From positions 232,631,758 to 232,695,757 of the forward strand of contig NC_052147.1 of the NCBI RefSeq assembly GCF_902713615.1: a stretch of DNA of 64,000 bases, in the 5' to 3' direction. How positions within the stretch are numbered: position 1 is the first letter of the stretch; every line of letters begins with the position of its first letter. The notes under the pieces were generated by a model. That model ran no database searches. It worked only from the letters and a program-made list of their open reading frames with translations, and was not told the DNA's origin. The stretch is from Scyliorhinus canicula. Its lineage: Eukaryota. A program made the position numbers and the translations under genes. This document shows positions 131 through 41,512 of this stretch, piece by piece.

Positions 131-160
131 TGATGAGACCATCAATTCACGTGACACGCA

Positions 161-389
161 GGGCAGCATGGTGGCCTAGTGGTTAGCACAACTGCCTCAC
201 GGCAGTGAGGTCCCAGGTTCGATCCCGGCTCTGGGTCACTGTCCGTGTGGAGTTTGCACGTTCTCCCCGTGTCTGCGTGGGTTTCACCCCCACAACCCAA
301 AAATGTGCAGAGTAGGTGGATTGGCCACGCTAAATTGCCCCTTAATTGGAAAAAATAATTGGCTAATCTAAATTTATTTTAAAAAAAAC
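161..389 (+). mobile_element. tRNA-derived SINE (HE1-like) inserted in the 3' LTR of element A
   Basis: A box TGGCCTAGTGG, B box GGTTCGATCC, A-rich tail, ~15-bp TSD aattcacgtgacacg / aattcatgcgacacg. Confidence 0.9.
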
Positions 390-1001
390 AAATTCATGCG
401 ACACGTGGTTAGAAGCGAACAGTGGTTTTAATCATCTTACAACAGAGCCTGCCTGTAACGAGATGAACTCTAGATGAACTGGCAGGAAGGCTCACAACAG
501 CAACCTTTATACTTCCGGTTAGGGGGAGGAGCCATGGGTGGAGCCATGGGCGGAGCCAAGGGTGGAGACCAGTACAAGCTCCTCATCTCCCCCTATGGGT
601 AGAGCCGCGCAACTACACATGATCTAGTACAAGGTACAGGCTCAACACATGTTGCACAATACAGTGTAGATTATTAGTGTTTATAATTCACCACATTCAC
701 CCCTTGTGAAAAAATCAAGTCCGGCGGGGGTGATGGCTTACAAATTGAGTCTGTCCGGTGGTCGAGTTGTCCGTTGCAATCGGCGGAGCACCGGGGTTGC
801 AGCCTCTTCTGGTGGCTGGACGATCACGGTTGGTTGGGGTACGATGGCGGATTCAGGGGGTGATTCTGTCCGAGCTGGGACGAGTTGGGTGGGGTGTAGT
901 GTGAGGGGTACCTCGGCGGTGGTAGTGGGATTCGATCCTGCCGGCGCTAGGTCCCGGAGGAATACAGAGTCCTGACGGCCGTCAGGGTACTCTATGAAGG
1001 C

Positions 1002-4000: not shown

Positions 4001-4600
4001 GCGTGGCGCAGGCCTGGGGTAGTCGCTGGTCGGGGGCCCATGACGGGGTCGCGGAGTCCGCAGGGAACGAGGTGAGGCTGCGGAACGAGACCTCCATAGT
4101 AGTGGCGAGTTCTACAGTGTCTTCTAAGTTTTGGGCCCCTTTCTCAAGCAACCGCTGGCGCACGTAATTGGATCTGAGGCCTGCAACAAATACATCGCGG
4201 ACAGCGAGTTCCCTATGTTCTGCAGCATTTACAGCTTGGTAATTACAGTCCTGGGATAAGGTTTTTAAGTCTTTTAGGACTTCTTCTAGCGATTCTGTGG
4301 GGTGAGTAGTGTAGTACAAACGTGGTGCGCATAGACCTCATTGATGGGCCTCACGTACATTATGACGAGTAGGGCCAGGGCCTCTGTATATGAGCCGGTA
4401 CAATTAAGTTGAGTAGATATACGATGGCTCACCCATGCTTGCAGTAGGCTGAGTTTCTGCTCCTCCGTAGTTTCTGTAGTATTTGCTTCAGCTAGGTAGG
4501 CCTTAAAACATCGGAGCCAGTGTGAAAAGATTTCTTTCGCCTCTGCATCCTGTGGGTCGAGTTCCAGTCGATCAGGTTTGAGGGCTGATTCCATGGTCAT
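1002..4600 (-). pseudogene. gag-pol of element A (frameshifts near 4300 and 2150-2290; premature stop at 1002)
   Basis: Gag start MESALKPDRLELDP; tandem Zn knuckles CHFCGQPQHLRQHC and CSSCGRKG; protease LFDSGS; RT YLDNV; RNase H; integrase with D,D35E (IDFKGP, HSDSG, GQVEREN). Confidence 0.92.
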
Positions 4601-4628
4601 TCCTTACTGTTTCTTAAGACGATTAAAT

Positions 4629-4946
4629 TGATGAAACCATCAATTCACGCGACACGTGGTTAGAAGTGAACAGTGGTTTTAATCGTCTTACAACAGAGCC
4701 TGCCTGTAACGAGATGAACTCTAGATGAACTGGCAGGCAGGCTCACAACAGCAACCTTTATACTTCCGGTTAGGGGGAGGAGCCATGGGTGGACCCATGG
4801 GCGGAGCCAAAGATGGAGCCCAGTACAAGCTCCTCATCTCCCCCTATGGGTAGAGCCGCACAACTACACATGACCTAGTACAAGGTACAGGCTCAACACA
4901 TGTTGTACAATACAGTATAGATTATTAGTGTTTATAATTCACCACA
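4629..4946 (-). repeat. 5' LTR of element A
   Basis: Direct repeat of 131-695; minus-strand TATAAA at 4757-4762, Inr-like CAGTT at 4728-4732, ATTAAA at 4678-4683. Confidence 0.95.
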
Positions 4947-4951
4947 AGGAG

Positions 4952-5195
4952 GAATTTCTTCTCTGAGGGTTGTGAGTCTTTGGAATGTCTTGCAACAGAG
5001 ACCTCTGGTCGCAGGATCCTTGTATACGTTTAAGGCTGAGATAGATCGATTCTTGATAAGTGAGGGAATCGAGGGTTACGGGAAAGGGCAGGAATGTGGG
5101 CAAGAGGAATGTCAAATTAGCCATGATCCTATTGAATGGCAGAGAAGGCTGAAGGGCCCAAATGGCCTATTCCTGTTCCCATTTCTTACGGTCAA
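4952..5195 (+). mobile_element. CR1 LINE 3' fragment, right half
   Basis: Continuation of 1-130; FKAEIDRFL coding remnant and CR1-type 3' tail. Confidence 0.85.
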
Positions 5196-5356
5196 ATCAA
5201 AAATGTCAGTATTCATGTAAGAGCTTTGACAGTGTTCCAGATGATTTGTGCACCGCCACAAATTAAAATGCAAGTGGTCACGGAAATAATCACTTTTTTT
5301 TTTAGAAATGATGCTGTGCAATTCAACAATAGCAATTTACATTTATATTGCACCGT

Positions 5357-5601
5357 TGTGGCGCTAACAATTATACTCAAAGTCGAGAGACAAGTACAAT
5401 AGAGGCTTTATTGCTGTGCGATGCTATTCCTCCATCTGCAACTGTAGACTAGGATCTGAGTGACTCACACGCATATTTATACACAAGCTCCCTCTGGGCG
5501 GAGCTAGCTGGCAGGGGCTTACCGAAGGAACCTGTATTACAGGTACAGGCATACATCCCCCTACTGCAAGTGCACATCACTACAGTGATTATATCACCAC
5601 A
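5357..5601 (-). repeat. Solo LTR of element B, flanked on both sides by TSD ACCGT
   Basis: TG..CA, about 96% identical to 10356-10600; ACCGT at 5352-5356 and 5602-5606. Confidence 0.93.
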
Positions 5602-6228
5602 ACCGTTAATGTAGAAAGATGTGCCCGCATTTCACAGAGGGCCAGCTCACACAAATGGACATTAACCCAAAGTAAATTTGGTCCGAACTGTACATTTTAA
5701 AAAGAGTTTTATAGGAAGAAAGGTGGAGAGAAGAAGGGATTTAGTGAAGGAATTCCATAGTGGGAGTTAATCACTGAAGGCAGATCTGAATAGATAGAAA
5801 GTGCACCAAGTGGTGTGAGTCAGAGAGAGGAATGGCAAAGGTTGTGGGGCCCTAGGAGGATAAAGAGATGGGGAGGACTGAGGCTGAAGGAAATTAAACA
5901 CAAGGCCGAGGATTTTAAATTGGAGGCATTGACAATGTTGGGTAATGAGAACAGGAGTGATCAGTGAGCAGAATTTGGTGCAAATAGAATCATAGAATTT
6001 ATAGTGCAGAAGGAGGCCATTCGGCCCCTTGAGTCTGCACTGGCCTTTGGAAAGAGCCCCCCACTTAAACCCACGCCTCCACCCTATCCCTATAACCCAG
6101 TAACCCCACCTAACCTTTTTGGACACTAAGGGCAATTTATCATGCCCAATCCACCTATCCTGCACATCTTTGGGCTGTGATTCTATGAGAACATGGACAG
6201 GGCAACATAAAAACATGGGCAGGATACT
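5357..6228. repeat. Copy 1 of local duplication (LTR + flank + SINE fragment); copy 2 is 10356-11930
   Basis: 5602-5990 vs 10601-10990 differ at about 3 positions; 5992-6228 matches about 11694-11930. Confidence 0.92.
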
Positions 6229-9200
6229 GCAAGTACACATCACTACAGTGGTTATATCACCACATTCACCCCCTGTAAAAAAATGAGTCCGGCGGGGGTG
6301 ACATGTAACTATAATACAAAGGATGATATATTTACAAGAGGGTCCAAACAAAGAAAACCAAGAGTCCATCCGGTTAGCAGGTTACAGGTTGAGCCGAATC
6401 GGCGGTCGGCCGTTCCGCTGTCATTGGCATAGCTGTGGTAGCGACGTCAGCACAGGCGGTGATGGCAACGATGGTGCAGGTGCTGACGGTGTTGGTGCTG
6501 GCTGCTGGCGGGATGACTCCGAGGCGAGCCGAAATCTTCCGTGTCCTCCAGTGTGGGCAGGGGGACGATGGATGGACCTGGTGGGGACGAATAGGGGGAC
6601 GCCGGGGAGAAGGAGGGTGGCGCAGGGGGAAAAAGGGTCGTGGGCATGGGATTGGCACCTGAGGGAGCCAGGTCCCGGAGCGAGACTGTGTCCTGGCGGC
6701 CGTCGGGGAACTCCACGTAGGCATACTGAGGGTTGGCGTGGAGAAGGCGTACTTTGCCCACCAGGGGTTCCGCCTTGTGGTGCCGGACATGCCTACGGAG
6801 AAGGACTGGGCCCGGAGTCGTGAGCCACGTCGGGAGCGATACCCGGGATGTAGACTTCCTAGGGAAGGCAAAAACACATTCATGGGGTGTACTGTTAGTT
6901 GCGATGCACAGTGGCGACCGAATGGAATGGAGCGGGTCAGGGAGGACCTGCTGCCAGCGAGCGGCTGGGAGGTTCCTGGACCGTAGGGCCAGCTGGTCGG
7001 CCCTCCATACCGTCCCGTTCTCCCTCTCTACCTGCCCGTTTCCCTGGGGGTTGTAGCTGGTCGTCCTGCTGGAGGCGATACCCCTGCTAAGCAGGAAATG
7101 ACGCAGCTCATCACTCATGAACGAGGATCCCCTGTCACTGTGGATGTAGTCGGGGAAACCGAACAGGGCGAAAATGGAATCCAGGGCCTTGATGACAGTG
7201 GCAGACGTCATATCCAGGCATGGGATGGCGAAGGGGAACCTAGAAAATTCATCGACCACACTAAGGATGTAGGTGTTGCGGTCGGTGGAGGGGAGGGGCC
7301 CTTTGAAGTCCACGCTGAGGCGTTCAAAGGGGCGGGACGCTTTCACCAGGCGTGCGCGATCTGGCCGGTAGAAGTGCGGCTTGCACTCGGCACAGACCTG
7401 GCAGTCTCTGGTGACTGTCCGTACTTCCTCGACGGAGTAGGGCAGATTGCGGGCTTTGATTAGATGGTACAAGCGAGTGACCCCCGGAAGGCAAAGGCTC
7501 TCGTGCAAGACACGGAGCTGGTTCACTTATGCGCTGGCACATGTACCTCGGGAGAGGGCGTCTGGGGGCTCGTTGAGCTTGCCGGGGCGATACAAGATCT
7601 CGTAGTTGAAGGTGGAGAGCTCGATTCTCCACCGCAAGATTTTGTCATTCTTGATCTTGCCCCGCTGCGTGTTGTTGAACATGAAGGCTACCAACCATTC
7701 GTCAGTGAGGAGAGTGAATCTCCTGCCGGCGAGGTAATGCCTCCAGTGCCGCACTTCTTCAATGATTGCCTGGGCCTCCTTTTCAACAAAAGAATGCCGA
7801 ATTTCAGAGGCGTGGAGGGTGTGTGAAAAGAATGCCACGGGTCTGCCTGCCTGATTCAGCGTGGCGGCAATTGCGACATCTGAAGCGTCGCTCTCTACTT
7901 GGAAAGGCAGAGTCTCGTCTACTGCGTGCATCCCGGCCCTGGCTACATCAGATCGAATGCGGGCGAAGGCCTGTTGTGCCTCGGCCGAGAGGGGAAAATG
8001 TGTGGACTAGATAAGTGGGCGGGCCTTGTCCGCGTATTGTGGGACCCACTGGGCGTAATAAGAGAAAAACCCAAGGCAGCGTTTGAGGACCTTGGGGCAG
8101 TGGGGAATTGGGAGCTCCATGAGGGGGAGCATGCGGTCGGGATCGGGTCCCAGTAGTCCGTTTTGGACTACCTAGCCGAGGATGGCTAAGCGGTCTGTGC
8201 GGAACACGCACTTCTCCTTGTTGTACGTGAGATTAAGGAGAGATGCGGTGTGGAGGAATTTAGAAAGGTTGGCATCATGGTCCTGCTGGTCATGGCCGCA
8301 GATGGTGACATTGTCGAGGTACGGGAAGGTGGCCTGCAGTCCGTACCGGTCAACCATTCGGTCCATTTCTCGTTGAAATACCGAGACTCCATTCGTGACG
8401 CCGAAGGGAACCCTAAGAAATTGGTACAGACGACCGTCTGCCTTGAAGGCAGTGTAGGGACGGTCCGATTTACGGATGGGGAGCTGGTGGTAGGCGGATT
8501 TCAGGTCAATAGTAGAGAAGACCCGGTATTGTTCAATCTGATTGACCATATCAGAAATGCGGGGGAGGGGGTACACGTCGAGCTGCGTGTACCGGTTGAT
8601 GGTCTGGCTGTAGTCCACAACCATCCTGTGCTTCTCCCCGATCTTAACCACTACCACCTGGGCTCTCCAAGGGCTGTTGCTGGCCTCGATAATACCCTCC
8701 CGAAGCAGCCGCTGGACTTCGGACCTGATGAAGGTCTTGTCCTGGGTGCTGTACCGTCTGCTCCTGGTGGCGACGGGCTTGCAGTCTGCGGTCAGATTGG
8801 CAAAGAGTGAGGGAGGCTCGACCTTGAGGGTCGCGAGGCCGCAAACGGTGAGGGGAGGTAGGGGTCCGCCGAATTTGAGAGTGAGGCTCTGGAGATTGCA
8901 CTGGAAATCCAGGCCTAGTAAGAGTGACGCGCAGAGGTTGGGGAGAATGTACAGACGGAAACGGTCGAATTTCACGCCCTGTACAGTAAGTTTAACCAGG
9001 CAGAAACCCTGGATCGGGACAGAGTGGGACCCAGAGGCGAGAGAGATCTGCCGGTTGGCGGGATGGACCGCAAGGGAATAGCGCCTTACTGTGTCAGGGT
9101 GGACGAAGCTCTCGGCGCTCCCGGAGACGATGAGGCATGAGGTCATGTGGCCATTGACCAGCACCGATGTGGAAGAGGTGCCAGGTTGCAAGGACGCGAC

Positions 9201-10600
9201 TGGTCGAGCGTAATGGAGGCGAGTAGCGGGCGATCGGCGGTCGAGTCAGATGATTCCGACGAGGAGCGGCAGCGACCCGTGTCCCGGGGGAGGACAAAAT
9301 GGCGGCGTCTGGAGAACCTGTGGACAAAATGGCGGCACCCATGGAACGCACATGGTGGTGGTGGATGAAGATGGCGACGCCCATGGAGCGCACGTGACGG
9401 GACGGCGAAAGATGGCGGCACCCACTGATCGCACGTGGATTCGGGGGGAGCCGACGTCGGGGCCCATTGAGCGAGCAGTTGAGGCGAGGGGACCAGGGGC
9501 GCAATAGCGGCAACCGTCCGGGACTGACACACCGCTGCAAAGTGGCCTTTCTTGCCACAAGCTTTGCAGGTCGCGGTGCGGGCCGGGCAGCGATGGCGGG
9601 GGTGCTTCTGCTGACCACAGAAGTAACAGTGGGGACCCCCGGGGAGCGCGATGCGGCGAGCAGCGCAAGCGTAGTGCGCGGGGGCCACTGCTGGGGGGCT
9701 GTTTGCGGTTTCCAAGAAGGGTAGGACGGGTGGGCCTGGGTGTCCGTTTGCGGGGTCCACGAGGGGTAGGACGGGTGGGCCGAGTGGCTAGCGGAGTAAG
9801 ATCGCGCACTACGAGAGGCGGCCGTCATGGAAAGCGCCAGAGCCTTTGCGGCCACGAGGTCGAGGGCGGGCACTTCCAGCAGTCCTTGCCGGATGGGGTC
9901 CGATGCAATGCCTGTAACGAAGGTATCGCGCATGAGTAAGTCAGAGTGTTCCGTGGAAGTGAGGGCCCGGCAGTCGCAGTTTCGTACCAGAGGTATAAGG
10001 GCCCTCCAGAAGTCCTCATTTGACTCACCCGGCTGCTGGACGCGAGCAGAGAGTTGATGCCTCGCAAACAGGGTGTTCGTCGACTGTGCATAGTTCTCCT
10101 TGAGCAGTCCCATAGCTGCGGTGTAGTCAGTCACATCTCGAATTAGCGGAAAGACACTGGAGCTAAGTGTGGAGTACAGGAGTTGCTTTTTCTGAGCCTC
10201 CGTCGGGGGAGGGTCCGCTGAAGAGATGTAGGCCTCGAAGACTGCGAGCCAGTGAACAAAGTCTTTTCTGGCATGAGGCGACTGCGGATCCAGCTGCAGA
10301 CGGTCAGGCTTGATTCTGATGTCCATGGTGAACTGAAAATCACACAGCAATAAATTATGGCGCTAACAATTATACTCAAAGACGAGAGACAAGTATAATA
10401 GAGGCTTTATTGCTGTGCAATGCTATTCCTCCATCTGCAACTGTAGACTAGGGTCTGAGTGACTCACACGCATATTTATACACAAGCTCCCTGTGGGCGG
10501 AGCTAGCCGGCAGGGGCTTACCGAAGGAACCTGTATTACAGGTACAGGCATACATCCCCCTACTGCAAGTACACATCACTATAGTGGTTATATCACCACA
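6225..10600 (-). mobile_element. Ty3/Gypsy LTR retrotransposon B (related to A, different LTR); 3' LTR cut to 40 bp
   Basis: 5' LTR 10356-10600 followed by ACCGT; partial 3' LTR 6225-6264; PPT at about 6265-6274; gag-pol in several frames. Confidence 0.94.
6447..10326 (-). pseudogene. gag-pol of element B (multiple frameshifts/stops)
   Basis: MDIRIKPDRLQLDP; Zn knuckles CYFCGQQKHPRHRC and CKACGKKGHFAAVC; RT YLDNV; RNase H SDASD; integrase VDFKGP/HSDRG/GQVEREN. Confidence 0.92.
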
Positions 10601-10993
10601 ACCGTTAATGTAGAAAGATGTGCCCGCATTTCACAGAGGGCCAGCTCACACAAATGGACATTAACCCAAAGTAAATTTGGTCCGAACTGTACATTTTAAA
10701 AAGAGTTTTATAGGAAGAAAGGTGGAGAGAAGAAGGGATTTAGTGAAGGAATTCCATAGTGGGAGTTAATCACTGAAGGCAGATCTCAATAGATAGAAAG
10801 TGCACCAAGTGGTGTGAGTCAGAGAGAGGAATGGCAAAGGTTGTGGGGCCCTAGGAGGATAAAGAGATGGGGAGGACTGAGGCTGAAGGAAATTAAACAC
10901 AAGGCCGAGGATTTTAAATTGGAGGCATTGACAATGTTGGATAATGAGAACAGGAGTGATCAGTGAGAAGAATTTGGTGCAAATAGAATCATA

Positions 10994-11696
10994 TGGCGCG
11001 ATTCTCCGCAAATGCGGAGAGTCGTAAAGGCTGCCGTGAAACTGGCCGTTTCGGCAGCCTCCGCGCCCCTCCCGGGACCCGATTCTCCCCCCCGGTCGGG
11101 GCTAGCAGCGCGGCCCCGTGAAGCACGGCATCGCGGGCTTAGCGACAGTCGCTAAGCCCGCGCGCCAAGCGTCACGGCGGCTGACGCGCACGATGACGTC
11201 AGCCGCGCATGCGCGGGTTGGACGGCTCCAACCCGCGCATGTGCGGATGACGTCATCACGCATATGCGTAAAACCCGCGCATGCCCCTCAGCCGCCCCGC
11301 GGACTGATCCTGCGGGGCGGCGGAGGAACAAAAGGTGCGTGGGTATCGGACCCGCTGTCCGCGATCGGTGCCCACCGATCGCAGGCCCATGCCACCCTTG
11401 GCACGGCCGTGGTGCGGCCGTGCCAATCGGTGCCATGGTTGTCCGGGACGGCACTTTGCGGCCATTTTCACGAACGGTGAGAGCAGGTGTGTTTGCGTTC
11501 GTGAAAACGGCCGTAAAGGCCTGGGAACTCGGCCCATCGGCCAGGGGGGAATTGCTGTTCACCGTAAAAAACGGCGAGCAGCGATCCGTGTCGTGGGGCG
11601 GCCGTGGGGGGGGGGGGGGAGAATAGCGGGAGGTCGGGAAAAATGTCGGGAAGGCCCTCCCGCTATTCTCCGCCCTGTCTTGGGCAGCGGAGAATA
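10994..11696. mobile_element. GC-rich Harbinger-type MITE, present only in duplicate copy 2
   Basis: Ends GGCGCGATTCTCCGC / GCGGAGAAT (right end clipped); absent at the equivalent position (~5993) in copy 1. Confidence 0.75.
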
Positions 11697-11918
11697 GAAT
11701 TTATAGTGCAGAAGGAGGCCATTCTGCCCCTTGATTCTGCACCTACCTTTGGAAAGAGCACCCGACTTAAACCCACGCCTCCACCCTATCCCTATAACCC
11801 AGTAACCCCACCTAACCTTTTTGGACACTAAGGGCAATTTATCATGCCCAATCCACCTATCCTGCACATCTTTGGGCTGTGATTCTATGAGAACATGGAC
11901 AGGGCAACATAAAAACAT

Positions 11919-12526
11919 GGGCAGGATACTCCGTTGCCCGATGGCAAAATCGTGTTCGGTGATCGGGCAGAGAACGGGCTCTGACACCCAAATCGTGGCC
12001 GGCACCAGTTTGACGTCGGTCAGCCATGCTCCATCCCATCCAAAATGGCATAATTGCACTGCTGCCACGGCATTGCCGCGTCATCAGCCGGCACTCCCGC
12101 GATGCTCCAGCCCCGATGGGCTGAGCTCCCAATGGCGCGGGACACGTGTGGTCTCAGTCATGCAGGAACTCCCGTGGTGACTTCGGACTGTGCCCAGCGC
12201 TGCCACACGCGGCCGTGGGGGCTTCTGCGAGGGCTGGGAGAGGCCAGGGGGCAGCTGTGGGGTCACAGATGGTGGGTCCGGTCCATGCACGGCCGACACC
12301 ATGTTGTATGGCGCGACCGCTGCAGGTCGTCTGCCGTGCCCATGGCTTGGGCCCAGCCATTCTAGGGTCGTTTTCGGTGCTTCAGGCTGGTGTTTTACCC
12401 AGCGCCGCTGCTAGCCCCTCACCAGTCCAGAAATCGGTGAGGGTTTCATGTCGATTTTTGGTTGTAAAAGGCCACACATGATCCGCTGGCACTGGCACTT
12501 AGCCGCTGAAATGGAGAATCTAGCCC
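11919..12526. mobile_element. Harbinger-type MITE
   Basis: Imperfect TIRs GGGCAGGATACTCC / GGAGAATCTAGCCC. Confidence 0.65.
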
Positions 12527-26933: not shown

Positions 26934-27799
26934 TATTATAGCTGGAACAAATTAGAGGAGGGACAATGACAATTAGTTCGGGCTTTCATCCTGCCACCCT
27001 CAAATCCCCAAACCTCCCCGCCACCCTTACCATGACTGTCCCACCTTCTCTCAGAATGTCATCCGGCGAACCAGTTATGATGGCAAACCTCACCCTGTAC
27101 ACTCAACCCCGGCCCCGGAACCCCTAGACCTCAGACCTCTGCCAGGAGCATTAGAGAGGCTGCGCTCATCCACGCACGTACTCTTTGGCCGGGAAAGAGA
27201 TCTCAGTAGTGAAGTCCTGCTCTTTCGTGTTTGATTGTTGGCAGCTGCCTCAATGGTGCTGATGCTCTTTAGAGTTCAGGCACACTGTTCAGGCATTATA
27301 GATTGCTGGACATGCAGTGCACTAATCATCCTCTGTGACATGGCATCTGCACCTTCAAGGAGGCACTTGAGAGTTCAGGAGAGCAATGTGCTCTCACTTT
27401 GCATCAAGGCTAATCCTTCATTTCATATAATCCTAGGAGCTGGTTTAGCACAGGGCTAAATCGCCGGCTTTGAAAGCAGGCCAGCAGCACGGTTCAATTC
27501 CCGTACCAGCCTCCCTGAACAGGCGCTGGAATGTGGCGACTCGAGGCTTTTCACAGTAACTTCATTTGAAGCCTACTTGTGACAATAAGCGATTTTCATT
27601 TCATTTGAAATAGCCTTCAACTATGAAGCTGGAGGCTGCTCACAGTCAAAGGGGGTGAAACTGACTTTCAGGAGAGAAGCTGCAGCAGGGCTCTGACCTG
27701 GAAGTGTTTGGTAGGACAGAGGCTCAAGCTCTGGTTGCCCCAAAATATCTAAAGATGGCTTGAAGGCCTCACAGACGCAAAACCCCTCAGCCTCTTGGA

Positions 27800-39390: not shown

Positions 39391-41512
39391 TCAGCGACAC
39401 ATAATAGTGCGAGATAAATTCCATCAGCAATGCCTTCACCGCATCTTCTGGATTCAATATGAGGGCCATTGAACAAACATTAGTATCCTTCTTGAATTCA
39501 GGTTTCCAGGCTTTCAGGCAAAACTCCTACAAAATCAATTTTGATGGACTGGACATAAGTGGCTGAAAAACATCCTTCTTGCCAGGTCTTGTTTTCTCAA
39601 TTCTCAAATGAAATGAAAATCACTTATTGTCACGAGTAGGCTTCAATGAAGTTACTGTGAAAAGCCCCTAGTCGCCACATTCCGGCGCCTGTTCGGGGAG
39701 GCTGGTACGGGAATCGAACCGTGCTGCTGGCCTGCTTGGTCTGCTTTAAAAGCCAGCGATTTAGCCTTGTGAGCTAAACCAGCCCCAAATGGCCAACGTT
39801 CCAGGGTGTTGATAGGATCAATGATGGTTGGCAAAGTCAAAACTAAGTCACAAAGCCGGTCCTTGCTGAGAGAGTTTATTAACTTTTTTCAGAGTCAACA
39901 CTCCTCACATGCACCGAGGGTGGGATTTTCCCTATCTCCCACTGCTTGTTTCACATTTTCACACCGGAAAAGCTTCAGTCATTTGTTATTTGCAACCTTC
40001 CATTTGAATCAGTCATTGAAGATATTGGGCAGAACACATCCAGACTTCCAATAGGCATCCCCAGTGGAAGAGAGTCCTCAACAGGAATTCAGATTTTAAA
40101 ACATTTCCACCTCCCTGGTGAAACTTGTGTGTTTAATCCCAACAAAGCATTTTTAAAATGCAGTTTGAGCCAGAAAGATAGACCTGCACCCCTCACCAAA
40201 CTATCATTGTAATTCTGTTCTCTCTGTTCGTCACTTTTGTAAACTATATAAGAGAAGCAAAATTAGTAATTTTACATCATGACCTGCATGCCAAAGCAAG
40301 ACTAGTGAAAGGCATTATAGTTAGAATCTTCACAGGCAACAAACACAGGAAGTTTTCAATCCAATCTGGGTTGTATTCAAACAGAGGTCCCCAAGGTACT
40401 AAATGAGCCAATGAACCACCCAATCCCCGAAGGCAATTATGCATAGTTTTCAAAAATGGTTCAGAAAAATATTTTCAAAGATTTGACAGGATCTTGTAGA
40501 AGTAAAATAAAGACCAGAATTAACCATTAATCTACATCACAGATTTAAAGTTTAAAGCACAGCTTGTTCAAAATTCATGGATCAGGATGAATATTAAAAT
40601 AGTCAACTTTGGGACACAGTACGTGAAAAGAACACATTCAACAAAAATTCGGCACGACATTGAACAAGGAAGGTGGTGCTCTGTTTTTGGAAAATATTTT
40701 TAGTCAGGACATCTTCATTTTATATACGAAACACAACATTCAATCCAACATTATATAATTCTCGTTAAACGCACCTCACCTACCATACCATCCCAAATGC
40801 CCCGTTTTGCAACTGTAAAACAAAACAACCCCCCTCGTCCCGCCCTCCTGCTGAAGATTATCAACTCTGAAAGAAGGAGAGGAGTAGAACCCCTCCTCAT
40901 AAACCTAATGGCAAACTTTTTTATCTTCTCCAAATGTAAATATTTTCGCCAGGTCACTCACCCACCCTACTGCCCTTGGCGGCTCCGGAGGCTGCCACCC
41001 TAACAAAATTCTCCTCCAGGCTTTCAGAGAGGCAAAAGCCAACACGTCAGTCCATCTTCCCTCCTGCACTCCCAGATATTCTAATAACCCAAATATCGCC
41101 ACCCACGGGTTCGGGCCACCTTTACCCCTATTTTCCTGACAGTGTCCCCAAATGGACTCCCAAAATATTGCCAGTTTTTGGACAGGACCAGAACATGTGT
41201 GTGCAATTCGCTGGCCCCTTAAACACCACTCCCATCTGTCCTCCAGCTCCGTAAAGAACCCATTAACGCACGTCTTTGCCATATGTGCTCTGTGCATCAC
41301 TTTAAATTGCATTAAGCTCAATCTCGCTCTTAAGGAGGTCGAGTTTATCCTATGCAAGGCCTCACTCCAAACCCCCGCCTCAAACACCACCCAACGCCTC
41401 CTCCTCTTTATCCCCAGCGGGGCCCTCTCCCTCCAGCAGTGCCCGCTCCCTCTCCATTAACTCCCCATAAACATCGGAAATCGTGCCCTGCTCTATCGCA
41501 ACCTCAGACACT

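Follow-up and report, generated by a model that had tools for sequence, protein, structure and literature searches.

Organization of the elements

The window, i.e., the whole 64-kb stretch of Scyliorhinus canicula DNA analyzed here, contains two elements, A and B, on the minus strand. Both belong to the Ty3/Gypsy group, with PR, RT, RH and IN domains between LTRs of the TG..CA type, a polypurine tract and 5-bp target duplications. The LTR ends are backed by the target-site duplications AGGAG in A and ACCGT in B, as well as by those of two other copies. The features of element B, including a putative primer-binding site (PBS), are as follows.

10356..10600, minus strand: 5′ LTR, 245 bp; the terminal CA is TA in this copy; target duplication ACCGT
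10475..10480, minus strand: TATA box (TATAAA), assigned from sequence; the TATA-to-Inr spacing is common to four families of the genome and the relative L092
10445..10451, minus strand: Inr-like motif; predicted transcription start 10449, lying 44 nt ahead of the arm end
10406..10449, minus strand: putative self-primer (RNA 5′ fragment with AATAAA as its last bases), deduced from over-copied insertions, with the presumed cut at 10406/10405
10406..10421, minus strand: LTR arm, 16 nt; 12 perfect pairs, 2 G-U pairs and 2 further pairs in this copy
10406-10411, minus strand: hexamer AATAAA within the arm
10356..10405, minus strand: loop of 50 nt (3′ part of R and U5), presumed template of strong-stop DNA
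10353..10371, minus strand: short hairpin at the U5 end (U5-IR-like), covarying between family B and families A, C and D
10355, minus strand: 1-nt spacer (A); equal spacing precedes the TGG site of a tRNA-primed Gypsy family of the same genome
10339..10354, minus strand: putative PBS, complementary to the arm; the first bases are not TGG
10324..10326, minus strand: start codon of gag; gag-PR-RT-RH-IN lies downstream and is frameshifted in this copy
6226..6280, minus strand: polypurine tract and the first 39 nt left of the 3′ LTR

The corresponding features of sister element A are listed below.

4629..4946, minus strand: 5′ LTR; target duplication AGGAG
4757-4762, minus strand: TATA box; predicted start at 4731, 54 nt before the arm end
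4678..4690, minus strand: arm of 13 nt, ending in ATTAAA, obtained by folding
4615..4627, minus strand: putative PBS, 1 nt past the LTR end

The 5′ LTR of B is followed by one A, after which positions 10354-10343 of the minus strand are the exact reverse complement of positions 10417-10406; the arm ends in AATAAA, 50 nt short of the LTR end. The 12-nt complement, the 1-nt spacer and the position of the hexamer thus agree with the preliminary description of this DNA. The pairing, which had been claimed to extend to about 16 bp with G-U pairs, was reproduced by folding of 10339-10421, giving a 16-bp stem including two G-U pairs (z = -5.1), with none of 200 shuffles as stable. The stem of A comprises 13 bp (z = -3.35; 0 of 200 shuffles equally stable). 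In a folding context of 136 nt, z weakens to -1.85 and -1.68 for B and A, respectively. The remaining perfect inverted repeats of at least 12 bp with a short loop in the 64-kb window are mostly GC-rich insertions. A search of Rfam with positions 4500-10700 of the window gave no matches.

Classification and families of the clade

A single ORF of 1328 aa is present in one unbroken copy; an RNase H domain is encoded, and the best solved structural relative is the RT of Ty3. No match to a chromodomain at the C-terminus of integrase was found at E ≤ 0.1 in three of three full ORFs. The RT tree, which covers the clade and further Gypsy families of this genome, separates the two; RT identity between them is about 31-35%. 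The nearest named proteins belong to catsharks and rays, followed by those of a nematode, a sea anemone and an isopod. A scan of viral contigs showed no relatives. Gypsy elements of the clade are also contained in seven contigs of prokaryote genome bins (L129-L135), which is probably eukaryotic contamination.

Searches of the 4.2-Gb Scyliorhinus canicula genome with Gag revealed four families: A, B, C and D. Families B, C and D have 16-bp stems with differing middles. Elements A and B, which had been regarded as independent cases of the fold-back, are members of sister families with internal DNA about 67-77% identical, and their LTRs share the start, the TATA-Inr spacing and the hairpin at the end of U5; their stem sequences differ. 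The hexamer, described as kept at the arm end in both, is the canonical AATAAA in B but ATTAAA in A, and it is not always present in the wider clade.

Covariation of the stem within the genome

For analysis within the genome, 120 full-length copies were fetched, of which 110 were used after removal of 3 with an unreadable junction and 7 in the wrong register. Cells were counted in copies with a second LTR, at positions where both LTRs agree. Stem pairing was Watson–Crick in 1000 of these 1023 cells, with 12 G-U pairs and 11 mismatches. Matched substitutions were found at positions 8, 12 and 13 in family B, position 7 in family C and positions 8-9 in family A, and matched deletions in the stem of family D. 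Covariation between family B and the other three families extends to the short hairpin at the end of the LTR. The far edge of the stem is sharp, at 13-16 nt, inside each family.

Since arm and PBS are mismatched in some copies with agreeing LTRs (the 12 G-U pairs and 11 mismatches among 1023 cells), the PBS is not simply rewritten in each cycle. The hypothesis that each cycle rewrites the whole PBS from the arm was rejected, because the G-U pair at position 13 persists at 14:1 in normal copies.

Relatives in other collections

Alignment of 70 proteins yielded 72 loci from metagenome and genome-bin collections, of which 37 had a detectable gag start and 35 sufficient upstream DNA. In an unconstrained scan, perfect runs of at least 10 bp were found in 27 of the 35 relatives (28 at a threshold of at least 9 bp), against 3 of 1050 shuffles, none of which exceeded 10 bp. 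The partner begins 1 nt past a CA in 23 of the 28 runs. Among the seven misses, L091 has an 11-bp stem, and L110, with the near-identical L111 and L117, an 11-bp stem including one G-U pair; no fold-back was found on the scan in L080, L094 and L095. The loci with a fold-back are scattered over the RT tree.

A set of 25 representatives was used for analysis of the pairs, with swapped arms and shuffles as covariation controls and the 1-nt spacer fixed by definition. Positions 1-12 are Watson–Crick in 295 of 300 cells. At positions 5-12, the PBS matches its own arm in 98% of cases and a swapped arm in 45%, and positions 5 and 7-9 each contain all four types of Watson–Crick pair. The stem stays perfect despite sequence change across relatives about 50-57% identical in protein. 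Loop length among the representatives is 23-69 nt; the arm end is a near-invariant ..AAA (24 of 25), usually followed by RCC. Covariation, which the preliminary description had claimed from A and B and proposed to check on relatives, is thus upheld across the clade (stems of at least 10 bp in 27 of 35; 98% versus 45% match). Covariation alone is no proof of a selected RNA fold, however, because copying of a primer can also yield matched changes.

Arm positions 9-13 favour T-N-A-G-Y, with A at position 11 in 18 and G at position 10 in 20 of the 25 representatives; this may be the trace of an Inr or of a recognition motif, or simply mean that a constrained stem evolves slowly. A small RCCT...AGGY hairpin with G-U tolerated at its base lies just 3′ of the arm, at the presumed cut, in L064, L065, L067, L069, L070, L074, L079, L082, L129 and L132, and is a candidate cleavage determinant. 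Upstream of gag in L091, the LTR end and PBS are present in tandem, twice.

tRNA primer site

The TGG site is absent from all 25 representatives. A distant, tRNA-primed Gypsy family of the same genome, used as a control, has the 1-nt spacer and the TGG site; no fold-back was found in six of its copies, where the best run was 5-6 bp (4 of 10 control loci had no usable LTR pair). The post-LTR 16-mer of B occupies the slot of a tRNA PBS, yet pairs with its own R region. The presence of all four pair types at positions 5 and 7-9 is unexpected for a site complementary to a conserved tRNA. A conserved tRNA or half-tRNA primer was accordingly rejected, judging from the site itself in the 25 representatives, which lacks TGG and varies freely.

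Predicted start and end of the RNA

A TATAAA-type box and an Inr-like A about 31 nt later were found in families A-D and the relative L092. The distance from the predicted start to the arm end is 44 nt in B, 45 nt in C and D, and 53-54 nt in A. As the predicted start is upstream of the arm, the arm is internal to the predicted RNA; in Tf1 it forms the tip. The majority of the other relatives, of invertebrate type, have no TATA box, and several of them contain an Inr-like motif inside the arm at -11; in these, a primer of Tf1 length could be formed, judging by the motif. Four RNA read runs of the same species (109-358 reads each, of mixed subfamilies) showed no peaks of starts, ends or joints. 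An 11-bp inverted repeat spans the predicted start site of A (window positions 4730-4790), and only one of its arms would be in the RNA.

A canonical hexamer is present at the arm end in 14 of the 25 representatives, is implied by the partner in two more and is absent from nine, of which two have a canonical hexamer in the loop instead. The geometry leads one to expect a poly(A) signal at the arm end or close to it, since the short loop is where the RNA has to stop. Masking of the hexamer of the 5′ LTR, the anti-termination role suggested in the preliminary description, may be a side benefit of the stem; proximity to the cap might in any case keep the 5′ poly(A) signal inactive.

Over-copied insertions

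If the 5′ fragment is the primer, plus-strand synthesis would be expected to run beyond the PBS as far as the cap in some cases, and part of the products to integrate. Exact patterns consisting of the LTR end, the PBS and further complement were searched for throughout the genome of Scyliorhinus canicula, to which this test was confined. A total of 122 matches were found, 60 for family B, 43 for C, 13 for A and 6 for D, and none with reversed-pattern control searches. The normal junction of family B occurs at 895 places, so over-copied junctions amount to about 6% in this family (60 vs. 895). Of the 89 matches examined (35 of 60 in B, 35 of 43 in C, 13 of 13 in A, 6 of 6 in D), 87 were real over-copies, while two C matches were point variants and were dropped.

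The extension runs through most or all of U3 in 24 of the 87 (8 in B, 5 in C, 6 in A and 5 in D, including L350 and L422). The other over-copies are short. Family B copies stop at 21-39 nt (14 copies), 42-48 nt (9) and 52-84 nt (4), with ends piling up at 42-44 nt, near the predicted start 10449; family C copies stop at 21-39 nt (10), 42-48 nt (16), 51 nt and 75 nt. Family A copies stop at 19, 30, 49, 50, 52, 53 and 82 nt, i.e., four of seven at 49-53 nt, a shift that goes with a TATA box about 9 nt more distant. The only short stop in family D is at 36 nt, the other five copies entering U3, and gives no support for a stop at the start site.

For the interval 42-48 nt, set around the start site predicted beforehand, the stop rate per nt in families B and C together is 0.091, compared with 0.022 at 21-41 nt and 0.0035 at 49-170 nt, six repeats of two junctions being collapsed. 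The excess has a binomial p of 5e-14 against 49-170 nt and 1e-5 against 21-41 nt, both approximate, as events may share descent. Earlier stops (21-41 nt) were found in 24 over-copies of B and C, and stops between 49 and 170 nt in 6. A sense template running from the arm end to the start site corresponds to the 5′ end of the RNA and to nothing else.

Over-copies L360, L365 and L400 retain the two LTRs and are bounded by perfect 5-bp duplications, and in L409 four of five positions agree; target duplications were also found in the palindromic over-copies L346, L350 and L419. The LTRs and 5-bp duplications indicate that these copies arose in reverse transcription. The over-copied LTRs are mostly 5′ LTRs, since a polypurine tract was flagged before only 3 of 89, with many LTR starts unreadable. 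Many extensions run on into gag or pol, several with microhomology of 3-10 nt.

At stem position 13, over-copies follow the arm (G-C in 4, G-U in 1), whereas normal copies have G-U (G-C in 1, G-U in 14; Fisher p 0.005). This contrast fits removal of the far end of the primer copy in the normal pathway.

Two classes of unusual insertions were also observed. L346, L350, L419 and L422 are short palindromic insertions made of the LTR, 1 nt and inverted R-U3; each has a U3 end on either side and a 5-bp target duplication (4 of 5 in L422). In L362, L369, L375, L423 and L425, ATGG microhomology links the over-copied primer to the start of gag, and the resulting leader is complementary to the whole 5′ end of the RNA; these copies are either recurrent or a sub-lineage. 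Such joining is a possible route for the change of stem length between families.

Proposed priming mechanism

The fold-back is real and clade-wide, and its sequence organization indicates that it works like the self-priming of Tf1. The earlier suggestion that it supplies the primer for reverse transcription gained support beyond covariation, namely from the partner in the slot of a tRNA PBS and, more strongly than from covariation, from over-copied insertions ending at the predicted RNA start. There is thus good reason to believe that the post-LTR 16-mer is a PBS for the element's own R region and that element B primes itself from a 5′ RNA fragment of about 44 nt cut after the hexamer. In the families studied, the primer is most likely a 5′ RNA fragment of 44-54 nt, whose last 13-16 nt would be paired.

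The RNA would start at the TATA/Inr site and pair back co-transcriptionally, the PBS with the R arm. A cut just after ..AAA or the hexamer, likely by the RNase H of the element as in Tf1, would release the 5′ fragment of about 44 nt, which would prime minus-strand DNA. The strong-stop DNA would be only 24-70 nt long, and its transfer would use the sequence lying between the cut and the poly(A) site. Plus-strand DNA would then copy the primer toward the cap, the unpaired tail normally being lost. A retained tail could jump by microhomology into gag or pol, giving deleted elements, or snap back along U3, giving palindromic insertions.

A short primer as in Tf1, with the arm freed by two cuts or by a second start site at its 5′ end and the over-copies formed when plus-strand DNA switches via the arm to uncut RNA and proceeds to the cap, is unlikely. 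It predicts identical junctions and would suit the sharp far edge of the stem at 13-16 nt in each family and the Inr-like motif at -11 of several relatives, but it requires an extra template switch for about 6% of the family B junctions, and the TATA box and Inr lie with canonical spacing well upstream of the arm in four families and L092.

It is very improbable that the stem mainly hides the poly(A) signal of the 5′ LTR while another RNA primes. A retrovirus whose R contains the signal has to suppress it, and such a role has been proposed for a stem-loop of HIV-1 (PMC12789967, available passages); the hexamer at the arm end (14 of 25 representatives, implied in two more) and a partner present solely after the 5′ LTR are what masking would lead one to expect. 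However, the element has no other PBS, nine of 25 representatives retain the stem without the hexamer, and over-copies ending at the start site are left unexplained. Nor does masking need a partner exactly 1 nt past the LTR end, as found in 23 of 28 runs.

A second copy of the arm lies in the 3′ R region and, if the RNA were trimmed behind the hexamer, would offer the same sequence near the RNA 3′ end for end-to-end priming. Such a primer would be continuous with U3 and should give no stop at the U3/R border, where a stop is seen; products traversing U3, where readable, stop at the LTR start and do not run on into internal sequence, so this primer can hardly be the one used. A functionless inverted duplication, inherited from one ancestor or produced by DNA snap-back, would account for the palindromic class (24 of 87 over-copies) but is scarcely credible, since the stem stays perfect while its sequence changes among relatives about 50-57% identical in protein, snap-back gives no cause for the start-site stop, and the element has no alternative primer site.

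Under the preferred reading, self-priming from a long 5′ fragment, an unpaired primer tail of about 28-41 nt poses the problem of stopping plus-strand copying. Retroviruses stop this copying with a modified base of the tRNA. The over-copied junctions of family B, about 6%, would be the cost of the unpaired tail. We put forward tentatively, as less than an even chance, the broader proposal that tRNA-free priming arose in a widespread animal Gypsy clade separately from that of Tf1/sushi, with a long capped fragment, cut precisely behind the poly(A) hexamer, as primer and a single PBS duplex both silencing the 5′ poly(A) signal while the RNA is transcribed and priming in the particle, and that its failed products record the length and start of the primer.

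Comparison with known systems

Self-priming has been shown experimentally in Tf1 of fission yeast and is elsewhere mostly inferred from complementarity; a Gypsy clade without a chromodomain adds independent genomic evidence for it. A search for the LTR end, the PBS and the predicted extension could serve to test self-priming and to map start sites in any high-copy family of any assembly, RNA data not being needed.

According to the available passages of the papers cited, Tf1 primes with the initial 11 nt of its RNA, which RNase H cuts off (PMC7175516), and in about half of Tf1 cDNA a 3′ end still carries the primer as a DNA copy (PMC11042837). The Tf1/sushi group comprises chromoviruses with a structure of three duplexes (PMC10085805), the primer of Tf2 is located in R (PMC5341516), and self-priming was proposed for Tj1 (PMC4600332). 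The clade resembles Tf1, Tf2 and Tj1, as they are described there, in a PBS directly after the 5′ LTR that is complementary to R and in the Ty3/Gypsy domain order; Tf1 in a primer released by a cut and copied into DNA, represented in the clade by over-copied integrated products and a presumed cut; and Tf1/sushi elements in a stem at the U5 end beside the PBS.

Unlike in Tf1, the paired 13-16 nt of the clade would lie 28-41 nt inside the RNA, leaving a long unpaired 5′ tail, and the primer would end in ..AAA, usually a poly(A) hexamer; a chromodomain is absent. With respect to primer length, promoter spacing and the ends of over-copies indirectly place the RNA start of families A-C 44-54 nt ahead of where the primer ends. 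Of the duplexes of the Tf1 'pretzel', the stem at the U5 end is present in the four families and a hairpin just 3′ of the arm in many relatives, whereas the second flanking (U5-leader) duplex was not consistently found. On the features tested, i.e., absence of a chromodomain and a primer other than the first 11 nt, the clade is not a member of Tf1/sushi.

The plant lineages Tcn1 (gypsy) and TAR (copia) have no tRNA PBS, and self-priming was predicted for them from complementarity (PMC6317226). The clade shares both features with them but belongs to another lineage and other hosts; the evidence for Tcn1 and TAR is sequence prediction, and over-copied insertions are unmentioned in the available passages of that paper.

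The literature covered, among it PMC3601003, PMC6934838 and PMC5443660 but outside which most subscription journals and Repbase lie, contained no paper on self-priming, an internal primer or over-copied insertions in this clade. Repbase reportedly holds notes on self-primed Gypsy families, and the clade may already have been described.

In HIV-1, which is tRNA-primed, the polyA stem lies within R and forms at both ends of the RNA. In the clade, by contrast, the partner is the PBS, present at the 5′ end only, and suppression is a candidate role. The likeness to the HIV-1 polyA hairpin (PMC12789967, in part) consists in an AAUAAA in R at both RNA ends, base-paired in a stem; the same review covers how retroviruses suppress 5′ polyadenylation.

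Among animal elements, the clade may be compared with the Gypsy elements of the Cigr-1 clade, described from a tunicate and molluscs in a paper whose available main text makes no mention of a PBS (PMC6238403). Element B resembles Cigr-1 in its short LTRs and single ORF, which is a lead to possible membership. The LTRs of Cigr-1 are about 245 bp long, and its single ORF is about 1200 aa.

Other features of the window

The 3′ LTR of A (window positions 131-695) is split by a SINE-like repeat at about 161-390, and its end is located, with the AGGAG duplication, at 126-160. The 3′ LTR of B is broken off after 39 nt (6226-6264) and is followed by a duplicate of the upstream flank of B, about 97% identical. 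The duplicate (5357-6228, compared with 10356-11930) ends in a complete LTR at 5357-5601 with ACCGT on both sides. The arrangement resembles the outcome of unequal recombination with a solo-LTR allele or of a merging of haplotypes. One of the flank copies has an extra GC-rich insertion of about 700 bp with inverted repeats, at about 10990-11690. Three tRNA genes were called by ARAGORN in the window, at 27437-27515, 39696-39785 and 40869-40968, and are probably the heads of tRNA-derived SINEs.
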